The notes under the pieces: model-generated
Database searches by the model: none
What the model was told of the DNA's origin: nothing
What the model saw: the letters and a program-made list of their open reading frames with translations, nothing else
Translations under genes and position numbers: made by a program
Assembly: GCA_964643065.1 (NCBI GenBank)
Contig: CAZXPD010000005.1
Span: forward strand, 8-64,007
Origin: an uncultured Gammaproteobacteria bacterium
GTDB taxonomy: Bacteria > Cyanobacteriota > Vampirovibrionia > Gastranaerophilales > CAZEDP01
DNA length: 64,000 nt
Direction of reading: 5' to 3'
Shown here: piece after piece, positions 10,169 through 63,004 of the stretch
Layout of the letters: every line of letters begins with the position of its first letter
Numbering within the stretch: position 1 is the first letter of the stretch

Positions 10169-10558
10169 TTAAGCAAAAACATCCAAATGTCCAAGTCTAA
10201 CGATATCTTTAATCATTGTTTCTTTTTCATCATTATCCTGTTTCATAAAAATTCGGTTACCAGCACATTCACAACAAAGTTCTCGTAGATGAAGAGTACT
10301 AAATTTCTTTTTATTAGTTAGCTTTGTAAGATCAATACAATCGAATTCATACTCATCTAACATTGTATTAGTTACTTTAAAATTGGTAATTAAGCCCACA
10401 GTAGACCGATTATCGTCAATGTTTATTTGAATTGTGTCGCCGCTTTTCATATCTTCCCAAATACTTTCCAAATTCTCATAATTCCCTTGAGGCTTAACTT
10501 CAAGCTTGCTGTAACTTAACGGTTCACTTCCGTAAAAACTTATTCCATTCGCTTTCAT
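10169..10558 (-). CDS. hypothetical protein (leader-motif class, MKANGISFYG...)
   Basis: 129-aa ORF with upstream GGAG SD. No recognisable domain. Confidence 0.7.
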   Translation of the reverse strand: MKANGISFYGSEPLSYSKLEVKPQGNYENLESIWEDMKSGDTIQINIDDNRSTVGLITNFKVTNTMLDEYEFDCIDLTKLTNKKKFSTLHLRELCCECAGNRIFMKQDNDEKETMIKDIVRLGHLDVFA

Positions 10559-20821: not shown

Positions 20822-21130
20822 ATGCTTATAAGTAATAAAAGCAGTCATATTAAATTCGGAATTTCGTGCTCCAATTGGCAGCTAAAATTAAGAGAGTACA
20901 AATCGGTATCGGAAAAACTCAAACTGATTGAAGAAATTTTCCGAAGAACGAAAGAATTTATTGATGAAGGCGACAAATTTACTTCACAGCAAACAATTAC
21001 TCAGGATGACAAATTAAAAGCAGTTAAAAATTATGAAGCCGCCGTGGGCAATCTTCGCTTTCTGAAGTACTTAATTGACCAAATTATTACCAAACTGGAA
21101 GATAAAATAAAACAAATAAAACCGGAATAA
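20822..21130 (+). CDS. hypothetical helical protein (leader-motif class, MLISNKSSHIKFG)
   Basis: 102-aa ORF, amphipathic helices, no known domain. Confidence 0.65.
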   Translation: MLISNKSSHIKFGISCSNWQLKLREYKSVSEKLKLIEEIFRRTKEFIDEGDKFTSQQTITQDDKLKAVKNYEAAVGNLRFLKYLIDQIITKLEDKIKQIKPE

Positions 21131-26667: not shown

Positions 26668-26727
26668 TAAACAGAAAAAATGAGCTTTTTAACTATGCAT
26701 CATCATTTCCTAAAAATGGATAATAAA

Positions 26728-26757
26728 GTAAAACCGCTGTATCAACAGCGGTTTTAC
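26728..26757. terminator. bidirectional intrinsic terminator
   Basis: Perfect 13-bp stem GTAAAACCGCTGT-atca-ACAGCGGTTTTAC between convergent genes. Confidence 0.85.
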
Positions 26758-26779
26758 GATAATTATTAGATTTTTGAAA

Positions 26780-29700
26780 TTATAAATCAGCCCATGTCTT
26801 TTTGTAATCAGGTATCTGGAACGGCTTTGTAGGAAGACCGTTCATTGCCCATTCGTTATAGAGAGACATTTCAGTATCTTTAATATCATTGTAGAATTGA
26901 CTGCCTTTAAATGTTTTGTCGATATGAGTTGCATTACCGTTCTCATCGAAAACTCGCAGATTATTAATAGTATAATCTCTGTCAATAAGCTGTTTATGCA
27001 TATCTGTTCTGTTTCCGCTGAAATATCCCATTGTCTGAGCAAACTTCAAACATTTTGCTTTGTCGCTGCCCGCTGCATAGGCTTTAGTTTTGGCATCCGT
27101 TCCCGAAGGTCTAATTTCAACATACTGGGTGAGTTTACCGTTAGGGTCTCCGCCGTCAGTAAATTTCAAATAGGTGCCGTCACCGACAAACTTAATTTCC
27201 GCAAGATCGCTGAAATCAAGTTTTGGATATTTGTTGTTGAGCTTAGTTACCGCATCTTCAAGTTTAACATCGTCATTAAGAACTTTATTAAACATAACTT
27301 TTAGGTCGTTGATTTGATCTATGTCGAGTATTCTGAAGTCATTCTTAACATTATTTGTGCTTTTGATATTACTATTAAGAATTTCTGCCGAGTACTGCTG
27401 TTCCTTATCATCAAAATCGTATATTGCTTTATCTATCGTACTGCGTTCGTTTTGAATGGTAATTTTATCAAAAATAGCACCTATTTCAGACGGAAATTTT
27501 GTTGTATCTTTTAGCATATCTTTAGCATCGTCAAGCGATGCTATCTTATTAAAATACTTATCTGTAAGGATTGCCCTTATGTCGGTGAGTTGTTCAGTGC
27601 TTAATTTCTCAAAGACTTCTCTGCTGCCAAAATTAGCCGCAAATATTTCTACCGTTTCTTCTTTACTTAGTTTTTTAGCATCGATTTCTTTAATAGTTTT
27701 AATCATTGTCTCTTTTGTTAAACCCGAGAAATCGATACCCTTAAATGTATCTTCAAGAACTTCCTTGGCCTGAGCCTGAGTCATTGTTCCTAATTTAAGA
27801 GCAATTGCCATACTCAAATAGAATGAATCATTCTTTGTCCGTTTGTATTCACCTCTTTTTTTGGCGGCATCTCTAATGTTTGGATTTGTTTCACTTTCGT
27901 TATAGTAAAGAATATCTTCTCTGACATCGTATCTGCCTTGAATTTTATTTTCTTCAAAAACTTTGGCAAGATGGTCGGAAATACTCATTCCTTTAGGCAA
28001 ACTTGCAGCAAGAGCGGCTGAAACAATAATGGATTCGGTAGCACTTTTTTCTCTCATTGCAATGGCGACTCTGCCTGCTTTACTTTCAACAAGTTTCTCG
28101 GGTCCTATAATCATGCCTCCGCTTTCTTCGCCTGCAAAAACCATTCTCGGCTCTTCGAGCTGAATTTTTCCGTCAACTTCCTTTTTGCCCTTGCTGAGTT
28201 CTATTATGTTTCCATAGATATCTTCGATTTCAATCGGTTTAATTTTGTCATAGTTGTTATTTTGGAAGGCATTTCTGTTTTCTACAATCTGCTTTTCAAC
28301 TTTCTTCATTATATTGGCAATTTCTTTGAAACCTACAGGAACGTTAACAACGTTAACCCCGTTTGCATTTGCCCATTCATCCCATGACATTGCTGAAGCT
28401 GTTGTTTTAATAATAAATCTCGGGTGATTATCCCACAGGTCATCTTTTTTAAGCTGCTTCATCCAAAAGTCCATATTAAGCATAAAGCTTTGATTAGGGG
28501 TATATGATGCTAAAATCTTGCCTGTTCCCTGTAAAGACTTATTGGTATCACAAACATAGTCTATTCCGAGTTTATCGAGCTTTGCCCTGTTTTCAGGAGT
28601 ATCCTGTTCAACCTGCGCTATACAGAGCCTGTCATGATCAGGGTCGGTAATAAGTATGGTAGTTCCTACCGGTTTATTTGCTACATCAAATTCTACAAGT
28701 TCTTTGCCTTTATTGTCATACATTTTAGTATTGGCAAAATCAATGGTATCCAATACAGGGAAAGATTTTTTGCCGTCTTTTACGATAACTAATGAGCTGT
28801 CAACGGTATAATCATAAAACTTGCCGTCTTTTTCCCCCGTACCGATATTATGGAAGAAGGGATCTTCCTGAGGATGAAGCCAACGGAAATTTTTGCCGAT
28901 TTCCAAATTATCAAGCACTTTACTGAGGTTTCTAAAGGCAACACCACCGACGTTTTCGATTATCATAGGATTTTCCGTATTTTTTATGGCGTTAATGTTT
29001 GCAGGTGTTGCGATGCCGTCTCTAAGATATTGAGTATAAAGGTCTAAGCCGTTGTTAATTTTTTTCATTAATTGGGTATCAATGTGTTTATCGTCTCTGG
29101 CGGCGATTTCAATATCAACATAACCGTTGGGGTTGCTTTTAAGCTTATTCATTACGTTATTTTCAATTTGAGCAACGAATTTATTAGACTCTTCCGGAAT
29201 GTATTGGCTGCCCTGATCGTTAATATCTTTTGTAGCAGTCTTGAGCCTGATGGCGTGACTTGATGTTACATATTCGGCGCCAAGCATGTCTAATTTAAAG
29301 GCAAGGAAGGATGTAAGCCATACAGGCAGAGTAGTTCTTTGGCCGTCTTCATAAGGCGATTCATGAGTATAAATTCCGTTTGCTGCCTGAACTCTCTTGA
29401 TAAGATCAATATATGTGTCAGTATTGTATCTGACTTCACCGGTAGCAATTTTGTGAAGTTCTTCATTCGGATGGTCTGCTTTTGCTACCTGAGATTTACC
29501 CCAAGTTGCAAGGATAATGCCTATTGCATTAATAAAGTTCCTTGTATCCCAGGGATAAAGAGCGCTTTGATTTCCTCTAATGCCTGCTGTCGAAATATTT
29601 GCTTCTCTTTTATATGTATCAAACCATCTTTCTAAAGAAACTCCGAATTTATCTTCTTTTTTATCCCCTGCTTTATAATCTTCAAGATATTTACTGCTGA

Positions 29701-30109
29701 TTCTTAATGTATAGCCTTTATCAAGTTTTAAAATTTCGCTGAAAGGCATTGAAACAAATTGGTTTGTTCCGCTGATTTTGACATCATATTTAAGATTTTT
29801 GATATCGTTGGGTGTATTCTTATCAAGATTACTGAATAAGGTTCTTTCTGTCTCGCAGGAAAAATCTCTGCCGACTCTCTCTCTGTATCTGTCTTCAAGT
29901 GTCATCTCAACATCTTGAGCTTTAAAAGATACATTTTTATTCATATTGGTTACATTTACCAATTGTTTATTTAATTCACTCATTAATTGCAAGCCTCTAA
30001 GATCTGTACAGTTTTGGTTAACATTAACGGTATTTTTATTTTCGCAGTTTGCTTGTTTGTCCAAAGACACATTGGGTTTTGTTGATAAAATCAGATTTTG
30101 AAGTTTCAT
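26780..30109 (-). CDS. giant alpha-D-phosphohexomutase (phosphoglucomutase-like), 1109 aa
   Basis: STAGIRG, catalytic-Ser loop TSSH, metal loop DPDHDR, VGFK, GEESGG, RPSGT, all in the canonical order. Confidence 0.88.
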   Translation of the reverse strand: MKLQNLILSTKPNVSLDKQANCENKNTVNVNQNCTDLRGLQLMSELNKQLVNVTNMNKNVSFKAQDVEMTLEDRYRERVGRDFSCETERTLFSNLDKNTPNDIKNLKYDVKISGTNQFVSMPFSEILKLDKGYTLRISSKYLEDYKAGDKKEDKFGVSLERWFDTYKREANISTAGIRGNQSALYPWDTRNFINAIGIILATWGKSQVAKADHPNEELHKIATGEVRYNTDTYIDLIKRVQAANGIYTHESPYEDGQRTTLPVWLTSFLAFKLDMLGAEYVTSSHAIRLKTATKDINDQGSQYIPEESNKFVAQIENNVMNKLKSNPNGYVDIEIAARDDKHIDTQLMKKINNGLDLYTQYLRDGIATPANINAIKNTENPMIIENVGGVAFRNLSKVLDNLEIGKNFRWLHPQEDPFFHNIGTGEKDGKFYDYTVDSSLVIVKDGKKSFPVLDTIDFANTKMYDNKGKELVEFDVANKPVGTTILITDPDHDRLCIAQVEQDTPENRAKLDKLGIDYVCDTNKSLQGTGKILASYTPNQSFMLNMDFWMKQLKKDDLWDNHPRFIIKTTASAMSWDEWANANGVNVVNVPVGFKEIANIMKKVEKQIVENRNAFQNNNYDKIKPIEIEDIYGNIIELSKGKKEVDGKIQLEEPRMVFAGEESGGMIIGPEKLVESKAGRVAIAMREKSATESIIVSAALAASLPKGMSISDHLAKVFEENKIQGRYDVREDILYYNESETNPNIRDAAKKRGEYKRTKNDSFYLSMAIALKLGTMTQAQAKEVLEDTFKGIDFSGLTKETMIKTIKEIDAKKLSKEETVEIFAANFGSREVFEKLSTEQLTDIRAILTDKYFNKIASLDDAKDMLKDTTKFPSEIGAIFDKITIQNERSTIDKAIYDFDDKEQQYSAEILNSNIKSTNNVKNDFRILDIDQINDLKVMFNKVLNDDVKLEDAVTKLNNKYPKLDFSDLAEIKFVGDGTYLKFTDGGDPNGKLTQYVEIRPSGTDAKTKAYAAGSDKAKCLKFAQTMGYFSGNRTDMHKQLIDRDYTINNLRVFDENGNATHIDKTFKGSQFYNDIKDTEMSLYNEWAMNGLPTKPFQIPDYKKTWADL

Positions 30110-30369
30110 TTTAATTATCCTTCTTTATTTTACATAAAACTATTACTTGTAAATTCACACGAAATACTCGCAATCATGTATAAACTGCTGAAGATTGAAA
30201 ATTGTCATTCAAAAGAGCAAATGTTTAGAAAAATTTACATAAAAAATTTCAAAACGTAATAATTTTTAATTTTTTTGTTATTATTCAACATGTTTAAAGA
30301 AAAATTTTAAGCATATAAAACTTTTCTTAATTACTTGCAAGAAGTTAATTCAGGGATAAAAACAAGGAA

Positions 30370-31050
30370 ATGATATTTTCTGAAAGCAAAGCGCATGAAG
30401 TAACAGTCGACATAGTTATTTTTACGGTGCGAAAGAAAAAACTTGAAGTATTGCTTATCAAAAGAGGGCATGAACCTTTTAAAGACAAGTGGGCTATTCC
30501 CGGCGGATTCATAACCTTATCTGAAAATCTTGACGATGCTGCAAAAAGGGTTTTGTTTGAAAAAACGCAGGTCAGAGATGTTTATCTTGAGCAGCTTCAT
30601 ACATTCGGTGAACCTGAAAGATACCCCGGCACCAGGGTTATTACAGTCAGCTATTTTGCATTAATAAGGTCGGATGACTTAAAACCGGCAAAAGGAACTG
30701 ATACAAATGTTCAGCAGGTCAGTTGGCAGCCGGTTTATAATCTGCCTCCGTTAGCATTTGACCACAAAGACATTATCGAGCACGCCCTGAACAGGCTCAG
30801 AGACAGATTGGAATACACACCTGTTGCTTTCCAGCTACTCCCGAAAAAGTTCACCCTTACTGAACTGCAAAAAACTTATGAGCTCATTCTTAATAAATCT
30901 CTTGATAAGAGAAATTTCAGAAAGAAAATGGTTTCACTCGGAATCCTCAAAGAATCCGACGAATTTACAAAGATTTCCTCAAAACGCCCTGCAAGATTAT
31001 ATTCATTCAACAGTGAATACATTGATAACAAAAAGGGCATGATAGCTTAA
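30370..31050 (+). CDS. NrtR-like Nudix + winged-HTH regulator
   Basis: TVDIVIF, WAIPGGF, RVITVSY, LAFDH, FTLTELQKTYE, NFRKK, RPARLY. Confidence 0.9.
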   Translation: MIFSESKAHEVTVDIVIFTVRKKKLEVLLIKRGHEPFKDKWAIPGGFITLSENLDDAAKRVLFEKTQVRDVYLEQLHTFGEPERYPGTRVITVSYFALIRSDDLKPAKGTDTNVQQVSWQPVYNLPPLAFDHKDIIEHALNRLRDRLEYTPVAFQLLPKKFTLTELQKTYELILNKSLDKRNFRKKMVSLGILKESDEFTKISSKRPARLYSFNSEYIDNKKGMIA

Positions 31051-31184: not shown

Positions 31185-31919
31185 ATGCGTGGAATTACAA
31201 ATCAAAGAAACAATTTCCTTTATACCAAGAATAATCAACAAAAAATAAAAACCGGTTCGAATTTTTCAATCAATCATAATAAAAATAATCTGTCCTTTAA
31301 AGGCGGTGCAGGGTTGGAATTTTGGATGGGATGGTGGCAAACTTTTTCTTCAGTGCTTGCGGTTGACATACTTTTGATTGTAGCCGCCTATTCAGCAAAA
31401 AAGAAACTTAGTCTCAATTCTGAACTTAAAAACGTCATCTGGCTTTTTAAAGACAGAGAAAAAGACTTCTGCAAAGAAATGAGCAGTGAAATCCAGTCAG
31501 TAATCTCATGTATGGATAATTGTCTGACTTCAAGAGCCAATTTAAAGCCGTCCGACAGGAAAAAAATACTGTCAATACAAGGTGCTCTGACCGAAACAAA
31601 TGATAAATATCTTATTTTATCTCCTGAAACTTCAATACAGGAAAAATTATCAAGGCGTTTATTTAACCCTGATAAAAGAGAAAGCCATACCCAAGAAGTT
31701 CTGCCGACGAAATTTCATCTTATTAACAAGCTGAACGATATCGAGACCAAATGGAAAAAATATTGGAACGGACAAAATATTGATGCAAAAGGGCAGACTT
31801 TAATTTATCAGCCTGTCGTGATGAAGTTGGAAAAAGCTATTGGAATTTTGAACTCTATTCACAGCGGCAATTTTGCAGCGGCTACGGATGCTGCATTTGA
31901 AACAGTTGCACATACTTAA
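31185..31919 (+). CDS. hypothetical protein with Asn-rich leader (..NLSFKG) and one hydrophobic segment
   Basis: 244-aa ORF, no known domain. Confidence 0.75.
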   Translation: MRGITNQRNNFLYTKNNQQKIKTGSNFSINHNKNNLSFKGGAGLEFWMGWWQTFSSVLAVDILLIVAAYSAKKKLSLNSELKNVIWLFKDREKDFCKEMSSEIQSVISCMDNCLTSRANLKPSDRKKILSIQGALTETNDKYLILSPETSIQEKLSRRLFNPDKRESHTQEVLPTKFHLINKLNDIETKWKKYWNGQNIDAKGQTLIYQPVVMKLEKAIGILNSIHSGNFAAATDAAFETVAHT

Positions 31920-47139: not shown

Positions 47140-48417
47140 ATGAATATAGCCGGTTCAAATCCTTTTAAATCTTTTAATACGCTCAAAAAACATCCTCGGC
47201 AAAATGTCGGCAATGATAAACAAATATGCCGAAACAATAAAGATTCTTTTGAAAGAGTCAGCTTTAAAAATTTTCCGGTAGGAGCTGAGGGTTTTCTCTC
47301 AGCAAGCGTGTTAAAGGGTACCGGAAGAATTAACCCTGCTGATGTTGCCAGATTAAGCGAACTTATCGGGGAGGAAATGTCAGGTCTGATACAGAGAGCT
47401 ATTCAAAGTAATATTCCTTTAGACCCAACTCAACTTGAAATGATAAGCTCAATAGCTAATTTGAAGAAAGTGCTTGAAGAGCTCCAGTCAAAAGTGCCCT
47501 GCGGAGAGTATAGAGTTGAAAAAGACAAGCTTATTGTAACCTATTTTAAACCTGATTCCGCTACAAATAAGATAGTGCCTAAGACAACAGAAATTTGTAT
47601 CCAAAATCCCAGAGCAAAGAAACCGGTTAAAGTATTCGGACCAAACACCGATGCTCTGCAGTTTAAGGAACAGGCGTTTTCAGTCAAGCCTTATGTTACG
47701 GTAGGACCTGTGGGATGGACAAAACTAAAACCGGCTATTGTTGAAGCAAACGGATTTGATTTGTCATACTGGGGAGATGAAAAAGCGAAGGTAACGGCAT
47801 TGGCAAAAGCTTATGCAAAAGGCACCATGAAGTTGTTTACACCTGTTTATGATTATTTGCTGAAGGCGGACTGTAAACGTGAAAGAATAGCGTTTGTTAC
47901 AAGTGCCACGAATGAAGGTGTTGACGAAATATTTATGACCCTTTCAAAAAAACGAAAGGTTCCTACGGCAACCATAATCCCTTATCAATATGCAAGTTAT
48001 ATGGATAAAAACCACAGATTTCCACTTCTGATAACAAATAACATCCCCCGTTACGGAGATGCATTTTCTGATATTGCCGATATAACGCTTATAACCGGCG
48101 GAAGAGATCACGTTTGGCACGTTGATTTAAAAGATCAGCTTGTTGATAACAAAAAATGGGCTATTCCGGTGGATGTCCTGAAAGAATATCTGGGAATAGA
48201 AATCCCCGCGACAAACAGTCAGGGCGATTTGGAAAATTCCGCAAGACTTCTTTTGGATAGAGGATTTACTCCACCGTACAATCTTGATAAATTGTTTGGT
48301 GAACTTCCGGAAAATGAACTTAAATCAAAATTGACAACGGATTCCCAAAAGCTCTTAGCTGTTCAGATGTACAAAAAATACATTGCCGGTGAAAGAGCGG
48401 CCAGGATTGTTGCCTGA
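47140..48417 (+). CDS. hypothetical protein with leader (..DSFERVSFKN) and possible SLOG-like C-terminal domain
   Basis: TVGPVG...VTSATNEGVD...TIIP...ADITLITGG...WAIPVD echoes SLOG/LOG motifs. Family call tentative. Confidence 0.6.
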   Translation: MNIAGSNPFKSFNTLKKHPRQNVGNDKQICRNNKDSFERVSFKNFPVGAEGFLSASVLKGTGRINPADVARLSELIGEEMSGLIQRAIQSNIPLDPTQLEMISSIANLKKVLEELQSKVPCGEYRVEKDKLIVTYFKPDSATNKIVPKTTEICIQNPRAKKPVKVFGPNTDALQFKEQAFSVKPYVTVGPVGWTKLKPAIVEANGFDLSYWGDEKAKVTALAKAYAKGTMKLFTPVYDYLLKADCKRERIAFVTSATNEGVDEIFMTLSKKRKVPTATIIPYQYASYMDKNHRFPLLITNNIPRYGDAFSDIADITLITGGRDHVWHVDLKDQLVDNKKWAIPVDVLKEYLGIEIPATNSQGDLENSARLLLDRGFTPPYNLDKLFGELPENELKSKLTTDSQKLLAVQMYKKYIAGERAARIVA

Positions 48418-60521: not shown

Positions 60522-61658
60522 TTAGGAAGCGGTAATTTTGGCGATTGTTTGTTCAATGAGACTGAGACTTTCTCTGTCACCCTGTTTTGAATAATATTTT
60601 CTTGCTATTTCAAAGTATTCTAACGCTTTGACCTTATTTCCCAATGTCAGATTACATTCTCCGAGTTCAACAACGGGGTCGATTTCATAATAAGGCATTA
60701 ATTCGTAAGATTTTTCAAAATCAGCAATGGCAGCGTGAATATCTCCGGCAGATTTATTGATAAAACCTCTTATATGGTAATAAACATGATTCTGTGAATT
60801 ACATTTAATGGCAGAATCCAAGTCTTTTAATGCTTCAGGATATCTTTCCAGACCCATGTAAGCTAAACCTCTTTGAAAAAACGCGCCTTCATTATTAGAA
60901 TCTTTGCTCAAGCACTTATTGCAAGTTGCGACTGCCAAGTCATAAACGTCCAGATTGACTTCACAGTTTGCTTTTTTTACCAGTATTTCCGTTATTTTGT
61001 TATTTGGGTTTTCTGTTTTGCCGTAGCATTCTAAAGAATTTTCGAAGCAATCATAGGCTTCATCAAGACGGCCTGTTTCTAATAATATTTTACCCTTTGT
61101 ATAATAACAATCAGAATCATAAGGAGCTAAATCTATTGCCTTATCAATAGTTTCTTCCGCTTTATCTAAATCATCAATGTCAATATATGCATTAGCCTTT
61201 ATGTAATAAAGAAAAGAACTTTCGGGATCAATTTCAAGTGCGTTGTCGCAGCATTTAATAGCGTCAGGGCTTCTGCCCTGACGTCTAAGGCTTTCAGCTA
61301 AAAAACCATGGGCAGTAGTGAGCTTAGGATTAATTACTGTTGCCATTGAGAAGTCTTCTTCAGCTTGTTCATAATTTTTTAAGTTTAAATAAGCCAAGCC
61401 TCTTCGAAAAAACGCCGTTTCATTATTAGGATTTAATTCAATAATGTCGTCCAGCACTGTAATTGCTTCAGTATATTTCTTTTTGGCGGACAATGCCCTA
61501 GCCTCTTCCAAAAGAGCATCTTCATCTAAATCTTTGTATCTGACTCCAAAACAAACAGTATCTGCTGACAGGACGTGTTTCTTCGTGAAAGAATCCCCGT
61601 TTTCTTTAAGAAAAACAGGAGGAGTAGAGTTTATAAATGGTATATGGAAAATTTTCAC
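60522..61658 (-). CDS. TPR protein with N-terminal leader (MKIF...DSFTK...DTVCFG)
   Basis: Multiple 34-aa TPRs. GTG start overlaps the upstream stop (GTGA). Confidence 0.9.
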   Translation of the reverse strand: MKIFHIPFINSTPPVFLKENGDSFTKKHVLSADTVCFGVRYKDLDEDALLEEARALSAKKKYTEAITVLDDIIELNPNNETAFFRRGLAYLNLKNYEQAEEDFSMATVINPKLTTAHGFLAESLRRQGRSPDAIKCCDNALEIDPESSFLYYIKANAYIDIDDLDKAEETIDKAIDLAPYDSDCYYTKGKILLETGRLDEAYDCFENSLECYGKTENPNNKITEILVKKANCEVNLDVYDLAVATCNKCLSKDSNNEGAFFQRGLAYMGLERYPEALKDLDSAIKCNSQNHVYYHIRGFINKSAGDIHAAIADFEKSYELMPYYEIDPVVELGECNLTLGNKVKALEYFEIARKYYSKQGDRESLSLIEQTIAKITAS

Positions 61659-63004
61659 TGTTTATAATTCCCTTCTTGCAATAAATCTTGGATTAAATTT
61701 TTAATTTGATCAATTTTTTTCGATTGTTTGCTTTGGATATAAATTTTCATAAGCCTTTTAGCATCTTCCAACGCACCTGAAATATTAGCTAATTTTCTTC
61801 TGCAGTCAAGCCTGTATAATAAGTAATGCTCATTGTCCGGTTCTTTTTTAAGCGCTTGTGAATAATCTTTCTCTGCACTCTTAAAATCCCCCGTTTTTTC
61901 TTTGTAAGTGCCTCTGGCAAAGTAATTTTGAGCATTATCGGGAGACAGACTGATTGCAGTGTTTATGTCTTCAAGAGCTCCTTTGATGTCATTCAATTTG
62001 AACTTTGAATATGATCTTATATAGTAAGCAACAGAATCCCCGGAATCCAACTTTAATGCTTTATCAGCTTCAGCAATTGCCAAATCATATTTATCTATGT
62101 GATTAAGACACATGGCTTTGTTTAATAATGCAAATTCGTTTTTGGGGTTTAAATTGAGACAGTTGCTATAGTCATCTATTGCGCTGTTGTAATCTTCCTT
62201 TTTTTGAAAGATAAAACCTCGGTACTGGAACCATTCGCTTTGTTTTGGATTAAGTTTAAGGGCTATAGACTGATCTTCCAGTGCTTCTTCAAAAAGACGT
62301 AAATTAGCTTTACACAAGCCTCTTTTCATATATGCTTCGGCATCTTTATCGTTAACGTCAATTGCATTATCAAAGCTGTTTATTGCTTCTTCAAACTGTC
62401 CTGTCGCAGAAAATATACAGCCTTGCGAAAAGTAATACTCACCTTGATTAGAATCTAATTCAATTGCTTTTTCAATATCCTTTAAAGCCGCATCGTATTC
62501 GCCCATATCAAAATAAAACGTAGAACGATTCGAAAACAGTTCGGGACTTTTTGGATCTAGTTCTATCGACCTGTCAAAACTTTCAAGCGCCTCAGCAAAT
62601 TTCCCCTGACAGGAAAGAACATTACCTAACATACCGTAATGAAAGGCATTCAAAGGATCAATCGCGGTTGCCATACTTGCATCTTCTTCAGCTTCCTCAT
62701 ATTTGCCCAAATTCAAATATGCATCGGCTCTGCAAATAAAAGCCTCATCATTGGAGGGATTTATTTCTAGTGCTCTGGAATATTGTTCTATTGCATCATC
62801 AAAATTACCGTCCCCGCATAATTTATGTCCTTTTTCCACAAAAGCAGCTTCCTCACCTGGAAGAGCAGATACATTCTGTCCGAAGCAAATGGTATCAGTA
62901 TTAAGGGGCTGTAAAAAAGGAACAGAATGACCGTAGTTTTTACTTTTTTGCTGCTGTTTCACACAATCAATATTACTAAATGCCGGTGCCGAAAAAATTT
63001 TCAT
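61655..63004 (-). CDS. TPR protein with N-terminal leader (MKIF...DTICFG)
   Basis: About 11 TPRs after a 42-aa leader. Confidence 0.9.
   Translation of the reverse strand: MKIFSAPAFSNIDCVKQQQKSKNYGHSVPFLQPLNTDTICFGQNVSALPGEEAAFVEKGHKLCGDGNFDDAIEQYSRALEINPSNDEAFICRADAYLNLGKYEEAEEDASMATAIDPLNAFHYGMLGNVLSCQGKFAEALESFDRSIELDPKSPELFSNRSTFYFDMGEYDAALKDIEKAIELDSNQGEYYFSQGCIFSATGQFEEAINSFDNAIDVNDKDAEAYMKRGLCKANLRLFEEALEDQSIALKLNPKQSEWFQYRGFIFQKKEDYNSAIDDYSNCLNLNPKNEFALLNKAMCLNHIDKYDLAIAEADKALKLDSGDSVAYYIRSYSKFKLNDIKGALEDINTAISLSPDNAQNYFARGTYKEKTGDFKSAEKDYSQALKKEPDNEHYLLYRLDCRRKLANISGALEDAKRLMKIYIQSKQSKKIDQIKNLIQDLLQEGNYKQ

Follow-up and report, generated by a model that had tools for sequence, protein, structure and literature searches.

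Alpha-D-phosphohexomutases transfer phosphate between the C1 and C6 positions of a hexose by means of a phosphoserine, Mg2+ and a bisphosphate intermediate. The subject of this work is an oversized member of their superfamily, P0001, encoded by a single open reading frame (ORF) of 1109 amino acids with an ATG start. It lies in a 64,000-nucleotide stretch of contig CAZXPD010000005.1 (hereafter the window), part of a metagenome-assembled genome of 102 contigs that is 94% complete and comes from an uncultured, non-photosynthetic relative of cyanobacteria in the order Gastranaerophilales. As set out in the part of a published account that treats the active site (PMC5570346), the superfamily is defined by four active-site regions, with TASH as the phosphoserine loop; a DPDxDR metal loop is the type found in PGM2 and in 2Z0F, a putative phosphoglucomutase (PGM) of Thermus thermophilus, while a GEES sugar loop, whose Glu and Ser contact the sugar hydroxyls, is the PGM1 type. 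P0001 combines features of these two human sub-groups, with the GEES loop of PGM1/5 and the DPDxDR loop of PGM2/2L1, the latter resembling the Asp-Pro-Asp loop of 2Z0F (same part of PMC5570346), and its phosphoserine loop is TSSH, with Ser in place of Ala. The fold has also been adopted for non-metabolic roles: PGM5 is described, in the portion of PMC7761743 that concerns it, as an inactive relative with intact substrate binding, and Paramecium parafusin, structures of which are among the fold matches of P0001, is a second precedent. Unlike these two, P0001 keeps all of its catalytic residues.

P0001 is considered here as a phosphoglucomutase-superfamily protein with intact catalytic loops. 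With moderate confidence, it is read as a probably active accessory phosphohexomutase, one of a long-form family, to which its own lineage has added an insert in domain IV and an N-terminal leader serving for address or handling. Such an enzyme would catalyse C1/C6 phosphate transfer on a hexose, probably in the cytoplasm, beside one or two canonical mutases, and its gene would have diverged fast in this lineage while gaining both insert and leader.

The long-form mutase family

The assignment to the superfamily is carried by motifs and fold. All residues of the four active-site loops fall in invariant columns of a 59-sequence family alignment, bearing out an earlier interpretation of the same DNA, the sequence-only reading, that every catalytic motif was present. 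The AlphaFold model made with this alignment has a mean predicted local distance difference test score (pLDDT) of 83.1 and a predicted template modelling score (pTM) of 0.84, and all 40 Foldseek matches listed from the PDB are PGM, phosphomannomutase (PMM)/PGM or GlmM structures (E 5.9e-12 to 3.7e-7), led by 2z0f, 3olp, 1tuo and 2fuv. P0001 has the four-domain fold in common with 2Z0F and with the Salmonella PGM structures 3OLP and 2FUV (E 5.9e-12 to 3.5e-11), at 11-13% identity and with 1109 residues against their 491-545; it departs from bacterial PGMs in having TSSH rather than TASHNP, an N-terminal extension and the leader. The Pfam model of domain III, PF02880, is matched at 32.8 bits (cut-off 20.7), and a phmmer search of PDB sequences with P0001 gave nothing relevant.

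The sequence-only reading had called the protein a double-size phosphoglucomutase. The length of 1109 residues holds, but the appropriate baseline is an order-specific family of 735-823 residues, leaving about 350 as lineage-specific. The homologues listed number 120, comprising P0002, a second protein of 1109 residues, and 119 of 698-823 residues (one marked partial) at 44-51% identity, several of which are labelled Gastranaerophilales. Against 57 family members P0001 is collinear over the whole length, with 50-55% identity outside the insert and about 200 invariant columns. The four loops and an N-terminal alpha/beta region are shared with typical members such as P0033 (758 residues), to which P0001 adds the 64-residue leader, the 172-residue domain IV insert and small inserts at residues 121-135, 468-481, ~521-526, 612-650, 986-994 and 1047-1072, the first of these a 15-residue addition within the alpha/beta region. 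Relative to the canonical PMM/PGM of its own genome, which has 493 residues, the family has some 50-60 extra residues in each interval between loops and at the N-terminus; in P0001 every interval is longer, with spacings of 106, 207, 171 and 340 residues against 97, 139, 86 and 109.

Among the genomes searched, the long form is restricted to the Gastranaerophilales. It was matched in 24 of 41 genomes (40 relatives and the source genome), with open frames of 735-823 residues in relatives and of 745-823 residues for those that are complete and lie outside the source genome in that search. Among the 23 matched relatives, 22 align in two pieces, skipping query residues ~798-956, and the remaining one holds a short fragment. 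In a phylum-wide sample (E<=1e-40) all 123 genomes from one family (f3) had it, and none of 177 from other families of the phylum. Within the order it was not found in three further families (0/3, 0/9 and 0/1 genomes of f4, f5 and f6), nor in two incomplete genomes of the source organism's own family. Source annotations name the family's members "hypothetical protein" or "phosphomannomutase", and no relevant literature was found on phosphoglucomutase in Gastranaerophilales or Melainabacteria. A protein that all 123 of the f3 genomes sampled retain is yet without a name, a curated model or a known substrate.

P0001 is not the sole mutase of its genome, which has exactly two superfamily genes: its own, and that of the 493-residue PMM/PGM, found on contig C49 when a normal phosphoglucomutase was sought elsewhere, as the sequence-only reading had proposed. 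The motifs of the shorter enzyme are TASHNP, DGDSDR, GEMSGH and RASNTEP, and its best NCBIfam matches, PgmG and archaeal-type GlmM, are both below their cut-offs. Canonical mutases of roughly 460-520 residues number one or two in relatives, with or without the long form. A complementary distribution of the two types was looked for and not seen, with one or two canonical enzymes either way; therefore the long form has an accessory place, and the pattern of presence and absence gives no clue to its substrate. In the source organism's family, no glmM equivalog was found in the source genome (G000) or in G001 and G002. Each of these three genomes (94%, 73% and 78% complete) has one canonical phosphohexomutase in a frame of about 500 residues, two being the usual number in other genomes of the order.

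By the measures applied to the alignment, P0001 is the most divergent family member examined. The branch of P0001 and P0002 has a length of 1.18 in a quick tree, every other branch being at most 0.52, and P0001 departs from 32 of the 271 columns in which conservation among the other 57 members reaches 95%, a count whose median is 1 for those members. Such divergence could mark a pseudoenzyme or scaffold, a lineage-specific copy recruited to binding, structure or regulation, in which insert and leader supply new interactions. The 172-residue insert and seven smaller lineage-specific additions would suit that role, a canonical PMM/PGM is available for metabolic work, and PGM5 (in the portion of PMC7761743 noted above) and parafusin are precedents, both in eukaryotes. 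This alternative is nonetheless unlikely. Firstly, every residue of the four catalytic loops is retained. Secondly, the changes at conserved columns are mostly conservative, with none in the loop motifs. Thirdly, 32 of the 40 listed strain differences fall at third codon positions, which dominate the differences outside the insert. The pattern fits an altered but continuing constraint, and sits with a probably active accessory enzyme.

Several observations weigh against that preferred reading. Firstly, the Pfam models of domains I, II and IV (PF02878, PF02879 and PF00408) are matched at 13-15 bits, short of their cut-offs, albeit in the correct order. Secondly, P0001 reaches no NCBIfam equivalog cut-off (pgm TIGR01132, glmM TIGR01455, PMM/PGM); its sole NCBIfam match is TIGR03990 (archaeal GlmM) at 16.6 bits, on a model with a cut-off of 439 for which the typical member P0033 also falls short at 40 bits. 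Because three Pfam domains and every NCBIfam equivalog are so far under their cut-offs, no substrate can be assigned. Thirdly, identity to the solved enzymes among the Foldseek matches is 9-14%. Fourthly, the great length of the branch and the size of the insert, which lies in the mobile domain IV, would also suit a protein that had lost catalysis and taken on another role. Fifthly, no neighbouring gene is conserved across families at 12 loci of relatives, conservation of the neighbourhood being confined to single families, giving no pathway context for a substrate. Finally, the leader is carried by about 54 proteins with no machinery found for it, which leaves room for export into another compartment or cell.

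The domain IV insert

The extra block of P0001 relative to the family alignment comprises 172 residues (~790-962), placed between the first long helix of domain IV and the strand EIKFVGDG. The sequence-only reading had proposed a helical insert of ~165 residues that was bracketed by similar segments and had arisen by local duplication. The block, its helical character and the doubling of its flanks were all recovered, but the two boundary strings quoted in that reading are only weakly alike: compared directly they score 26, which 46 of 2000 shuffles reached. It is the family profile that shows the duplication, rather than any pairwise match of those strings. A 51-position profile of 57 members matches P0001 twice, with profile positions 1-39 at residues 760-798 and positions 14-51 at residues 945-982, so that ~26 positions are doubled, and a 151-position profile agrees (771-799 and 943-971). 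At the DNA level the flanking copies are eroded, with 36 of 82 columns identical, and from this poor alignment the duplication is old.

The interior of the insert is itself repetitive. Residues 799-873 and 889-962 align at a score of 59, reached by one of 1000 shuffles, and the self-alignment of residues 773-970 scores 74, reached by none of 60 shuffles (maximum 55). The end of the first repeat unit, SLDDAKDMLKDTTKFP, reads as the family segment once more, in a third and degenerate copy; the short profile gives weak matches at 831-869 that are not significant (E 0.09-0.2). The idea that the insert was copied from enzyme sequence further upstream was also considered and set aside, the 151-position profile giving no further match within it. 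The simplest history, supported by these alignments, is that a unit holding the helix-loop segment of the family was duplicated serially in tandem, within a surface helix-loop of domain IV, and that the copies then diverged.

Searches with the insert produced no relatives. A true homologue of residues 799-944 was not found by phmmer among 1.84 billion representative sequences, two matches to a PDZ-repeat and an ankyrin-repeat protein being rejected as spurious, short repeated local matches. The Pfam matches BrxL_N (17.5 bits, cut-off 28.2), CsgA and DUF5617 were all below their cut-offs. The insert is helical in the full-length AlphaFold model, where the pLDDT of the block is 51-86, and when folded alone from a two-sequence alignment it reached a pLDDT of 50.8 and a pTM of 0.33. 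The fold search suggested by the sequence-only reading accordingly yielded no usable match, the best Foldseek E value with this low-confidence insert-only model being 1.6, which is not meaningful.

The insert is also the fastest-evolving part of the protein. Its interior is 84.2% identical to that of P0002, against 96.0% for the core, and 7 of the 16 listed strain differences within it are at codon positions 1 or 2, compared with 1 of 24 in the rest of the gene. Related strains from two landfill sequencing runs cover parts of the insert; joints in these runs that skip 108-989 bases were left unused, having short sides or low likeness. At the length-variable spot between the two repeat units (Table 1), a related strain in run X10 has 177 letters where P0001 has 3, and a minor-strain contig of run X1 breaks at 27479-27501. 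Constraint on the insert is now weak, and as a helical appendage it may modulate domain IV closure or the binding of a partner. P0001 offers a view of a domain-sized insert growing by serial local duplication within a mobile catalytic domain, at a stage when its length is still shifting between strains.

The leader and its genome-wide class

The second lineage-specific element is the leader, for which the length of 64 residues, the richness in Asn and the ending VSFKA given by the sequence-only reading were all confirmed. The Asn content is 20% in the leader and 7% in the remaining protein, with Asn, Gln, Ser and Thr of the leader together at 41% and Asp plus Glu at 6%, and AlphaFold pLDDT is mostly below 50 over its length. 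Between P0001 and P0002, 58 of the 64 residues are identical. A leader of the SFG/SFK(G/A) kind is found on only these two proteins of the 120 family members whose N-termini were examined, and so is not a standard feature of the long form in relatives.

The leader of P0001 belongs instead to a class of about 54 translated N-terminal leaders in its own genome. The motif [VLIA]SFG lies within residues 1-54 of 42 of 2774 ORFs, and occurs in at most four per later 50-residue bin; [VLI]SF[KR][GAS] occurs in 19 and 7 ORFs of the first two bins and in 0-2 per later bin. Of 81 matches to these regular expressions, 54 were kept as the leader set on the basis of low hydrophobicity, an acidic fraction of at most 0.13 and a length of at least 100 residues, and 27 were dropped. 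A Shine-Dalgarno (SD) sequence precedes Met1 in 36 of the 54, none has an SD-bearing alternative start within 10 codons past the motif, and the motif is encoded by many synonymous codons, such that P0001 shares it with the 53 other ORFs at the amino-acid and not the DNA level. Therefore the leaders are translated, and conserved as protein. The regular expressions undercount the class, since looser variants exist: within the window itself, the leader ends ISFYG, IKFG, RVSFKN and ICFG were noted at 10169-10558 (-), 20822-21130 (+), 47140-48417 (+) and 61655-63004 (-).

A Pfam scan covered 40 of the 53 other leader-bearing ORFs, picked by hand, of which 16 matched a family and 24 did not. The enzymes among the matches were TIM, GAPDH, a mannose-6-phosphate isomerase cupin, a HAD hydrolase, an alpha-amylase-domain protein and guanylate kinase; the others included a class II aminoacyl-tRNA synthetase-like protein, an M16 peptidase, an AAA ATPase, a radical SAM/SPASM enzyme, a SAM hydroxide adenosyltransferase-like protein and three proteins with multiple helix-turn-helix (HTH) domains. 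The genome also has canonical versions of the tagged TIM, GAPDH, isomerase and guanylate kinase, which are thus extra and divergent copies, and the canonical, untagged TIM and GAPDH lie together on contig C78. In a genome of the same genus, at 97% identity, the tagged GAPDH likewise carries its leader; across the 40 genomes searched it has otherwise a single distant relative. For the tagged TIM, no match outside its own genome came from the 40 relatives at E<=1e-30.

The leader is read from its sequence as an address or handling tag, concerned with localisation, processing or turnover, rather than as a Sec or Tat export signal. Judged by a hydropathy window and the twin-arginine motif, residues 1-64 resemble neither a Sec nor a Tat signal: over 12 residues the highest Kyte-Doolittle mean is 0.4, and no twin arginine is present. 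The sequence-only reading had suggested a possibly exported enzyme acting on the sugar-phosphate pools of a host or prey, or else a regulated PGM with an added domain, and a leader acting as a non-classical secretion signal, with the mutase working outside the producer or inside another cell, would explain some of what is seen: like many secretion signals, the leader is N-terminal, disordered and common to many proteins; like many effectors, the tagged proteins are lineage-specific and fast-evolving; and flagellar parts are encoded (a FlgB-like ORF, named by reading its sequence with no family search), making a flagellar type III route possible in principle. However, besides lacking a hydrophobic core and twin arginine, the same leader is found on the radical SAM/SPASM, class II aminoacyl-tRNA synthetase-like, guanylate kinase and multi-HTH proteins, which require the cytoplasm. 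No bacterial microcompartment (BMC) shell or encapsulin gene was found, and the contractile-sheath genes are assigned, by reading, to Mu-like prophages. Sequencing runs holding P0001 DNA are labelled biofilm or landfill or are unlabelled, none being host-associated, so that neither host nor prey is indicated. The mutase would, moreover, need Mg2+ and a bisphosphate primer, as members of the superfamily generally do. The export claim thus finds no support, secretion or injection being judged improbable, and the address or handling tag is retained as the preferred role of the leader.

Three more specific roles were tried for the leader and rejected. As an extension of the L27 type, cleaved by Prp, it would call for a protease that was not found in a search for Peptidase_Prp, and the L27 frame is of 86 residues with the profile starting at position 1. 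As a compartment tag it would call for a BMC shell or an encapsulin, neither of which was found in the genome. As an injection tag it would call for a contractile apparatus, and the two sheath genes sit in two near-identical prophage-like loci. These loci (G000 C1 ~27600-62400 and C2 ~18800-48800, in opposite orientations) we take to be Mu-like prophages from the N-termini of their ORFs, read with no family scan. Sheath-like ORFs are among their contents, together with transposase-, portal-, terminase- and tape-measure-like ones, which explains both sheath matches.

A further, speculative idea, more doubtful than not by a wide measure, is that the leader marks a second, lineage-specific set of paralogues for sugar-phosphate and glycolytic metabolism, to include the mutase, TIM, GAPDH, mannose-6-phosphate isomerase, alpha-amylase-domain protein, HAD hydrolase and guanylate kinase, for common localisation, packaging or delivery through an undescribed recognition system. 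Were this so, the set could form a condensate or membrane-less metabolic body, a bacterial counterpart of glycosomes or G-bodies, or else a set of metabolic effectors, and the oversized mutase would be its first member with readable enzymology. Tagged spare glycolytic enzymes would then bear on metabolic organisation in uncultured relatives of cyanobacteria. Whichever role applies, a leader on an enzyme of predictable activity offers a practical handle on what it does, whether in cleavage, localisation or turnover.

Sequence support and gene setting

P0001 is a real gene, present in independent assemblies. That the leader and insert might not belong to the real protein, through a chimeric assembly or a mis-called start, was suggested by the fragmentation of the metagenome-assembled genome, by the long N-terminal extensions of other family entries in databases, which do resemble mis-called starts, and by a relative (G010:C8) with a strong SD and TTG at the canonical start position. 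This alternative is largely refuted, and very improbable, on five grounds. Firstly, a 30,113-nucleotide contig from a different study (run X3) spans positions 26700-30300 with 20 differences and no gaps. Secondly, P0002 has the same 1109 residues at 94% identity, on a 39-kb contig. Thirdly, Met1 has a good SD, to which nothing comparable was seen by reading upstream of the internal Met codons 43, 56 and 69. Fourthly, the leader motif is common to 53 other ORFs as amino acids, not as DNA. Fifthly, the frame stays open across 3.3 kb of DNA at 36% guanine-cytosine (GC) content. GC is ~36% across the window, with no compositional break at P0001. No RNA run was among the listed holders of P0001 DNA.

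P0001 stands alone, its downstream neighbour being a convergent IctB/O-antigen-ligase-like membrane protein. Upstream and divergently transcribed is a homologue of NrtR-type Nudix/ADP-ribose-responsive repressors (30370-31050, +; 193 bits against an equivalog cut-off of 400), a pairing with the mutase that was absent from the 12 loci of relatives inspected. The second gene upstream (31185-31919, +) encodes 244 residues with the same kind of leader, ending NLSFKG, followed by a Trp-rich hydrophobic stretch, and matches no Pfam or NCBIfam family. In one genus (two genomes; L021, G017:C3 and L026, G011:C4) a bifunctional ManC, mannose-1-phosphate guanylyltransferase and mannose-6-phosphate isomerase, lies directly 3' of the long form on the same strand, which is the classic manB-manC gene order. 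PlsC-type acyltransferases adjoin the long form at five loci of family f3 and two of family f10. These ManC and PlsC neighbours give a faint hint of envelope sugar-nucleotide supply, one too lineage-bound for assigning a substrate.

Table 1. Positions of the mutase gene and its parts in the window, and of leader-bearing proteins with family matches elsewhere in the source genome (G000)
Feature	Position	Strand	Basis
Long-form alpha-D-phosphohexomutase P0001, whole gene	26780..30109	-	ORF, translation, fold matches, independent contig
SD AAGGA, 8 nt 5' of ATG	30118..30122	-	sequence reading and SD scan
N-terminal leader, residues 1-64 (MKLQNL...NVSFKA), polar, predicted disordered	29918..30109	-	composition, model, SD scan
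Family-specific N-terminal alpha/beta region, residues ~76-172, before STAGIRG start of domain I	29594..29884	-	alignment; pLDDT 82-93 over most blocks
Phosphoserine loop TSSH, residues 282-285	29255..29266	-	59-sequence alignment; motif definition in part of PMC5570346
Metal-binding loop DPDHDR, residues 489-494	28628..28645	-	alignment; part of PMC5570346
Sugar-binding loop GEESGG, residues 660-665	28115..28132	-	alignment; part of PMC5570346
Left copy of duplicated family segment, residues 773-798, LGTMTQAQAKEVLEDTFKGIDFSGLT	27716..27793	-	51-position profile 760-798, 42.9 bits; longer-profile match 680-799
Insert interior, residues 799-944, helical orphan sequence	27278..27715	-	phmmer and comparison with P0002
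Internal repeat unit 1, residues 799-873	27491..27715	-	alignment to 889-962
Length-variable spot between repeat units	27501..27505	-	related strain, run X10: 177 letters for 3
Internal repeat unit 2, residues 889-962	27224..27445	-	alignment to 799-873, self-alignment
Right copy of duplicated family segment, residues 945-970, NDDVKLEDAVTKLNNKYPKLDFSDLA, running into EIKFVGDG	27200..27277	-	profile 945-982, 38.5 bits; longer-profile match 943-1010
Phosphate-binding loop RPSGT, residues 1000-1004 (RPSGTDAKTK from 1000)	27098..27112	-	alignment
Lineage-specific 26-residue insert near C-terminus, residues ~1047-1072, one of several small ones	26894..26971	-	alignment; modelled as two strands
Tagged TIM (L031)	G000 C10:27297-28262		Pfam
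Tagged GAPDH (L060)	G000 C18:2719-4242		Pfam
Tagged mannose-6-phosphate isomerase cupin (L032)	G000 C6:15115-15585		Pfam
Tagged HAD hydrolase (L038)	G000 C6:14103-14900		Pfam
Tagged alpha-amylase-domain protein (L059)	G000 C19:27174-31109		Pfam
Tagged guanylate kinase (L069)	G000 C47:12507-13361		Pfam
Tagged class II aminoacyl-tRNA synthetase-like protein (L043)	G000 C36:21856-23190		Pfam
Tagged radical SAM/SPASM enzyme (L049)	G000 C17:20757-21734		Pfam

Extensions at the N-terminus were also noted on other members of the long-form family. One relative (L070, G010:C8:1-5500) has two long-form paralogues, the second with an open, polar upstream extension of 60 codons ending YFGA; it is doubtful, and may not be translated, given the strong AGGAGG and TTG at the canonical start. 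Seven of the 120 family proteins (P0017, P0025, P0035, P0039, P0049, P0058 and P0061) are annotated with hydrophobic, signal-peptide-like N-termini. These were rejected as evidence of export, being far less conserved than the core. They probably reflect start codons called wrongly within AT-rich sequence upstream of the gene; at least for the P0049 group, what precedes the canonical Met reads as a translated ribosome-binding site.

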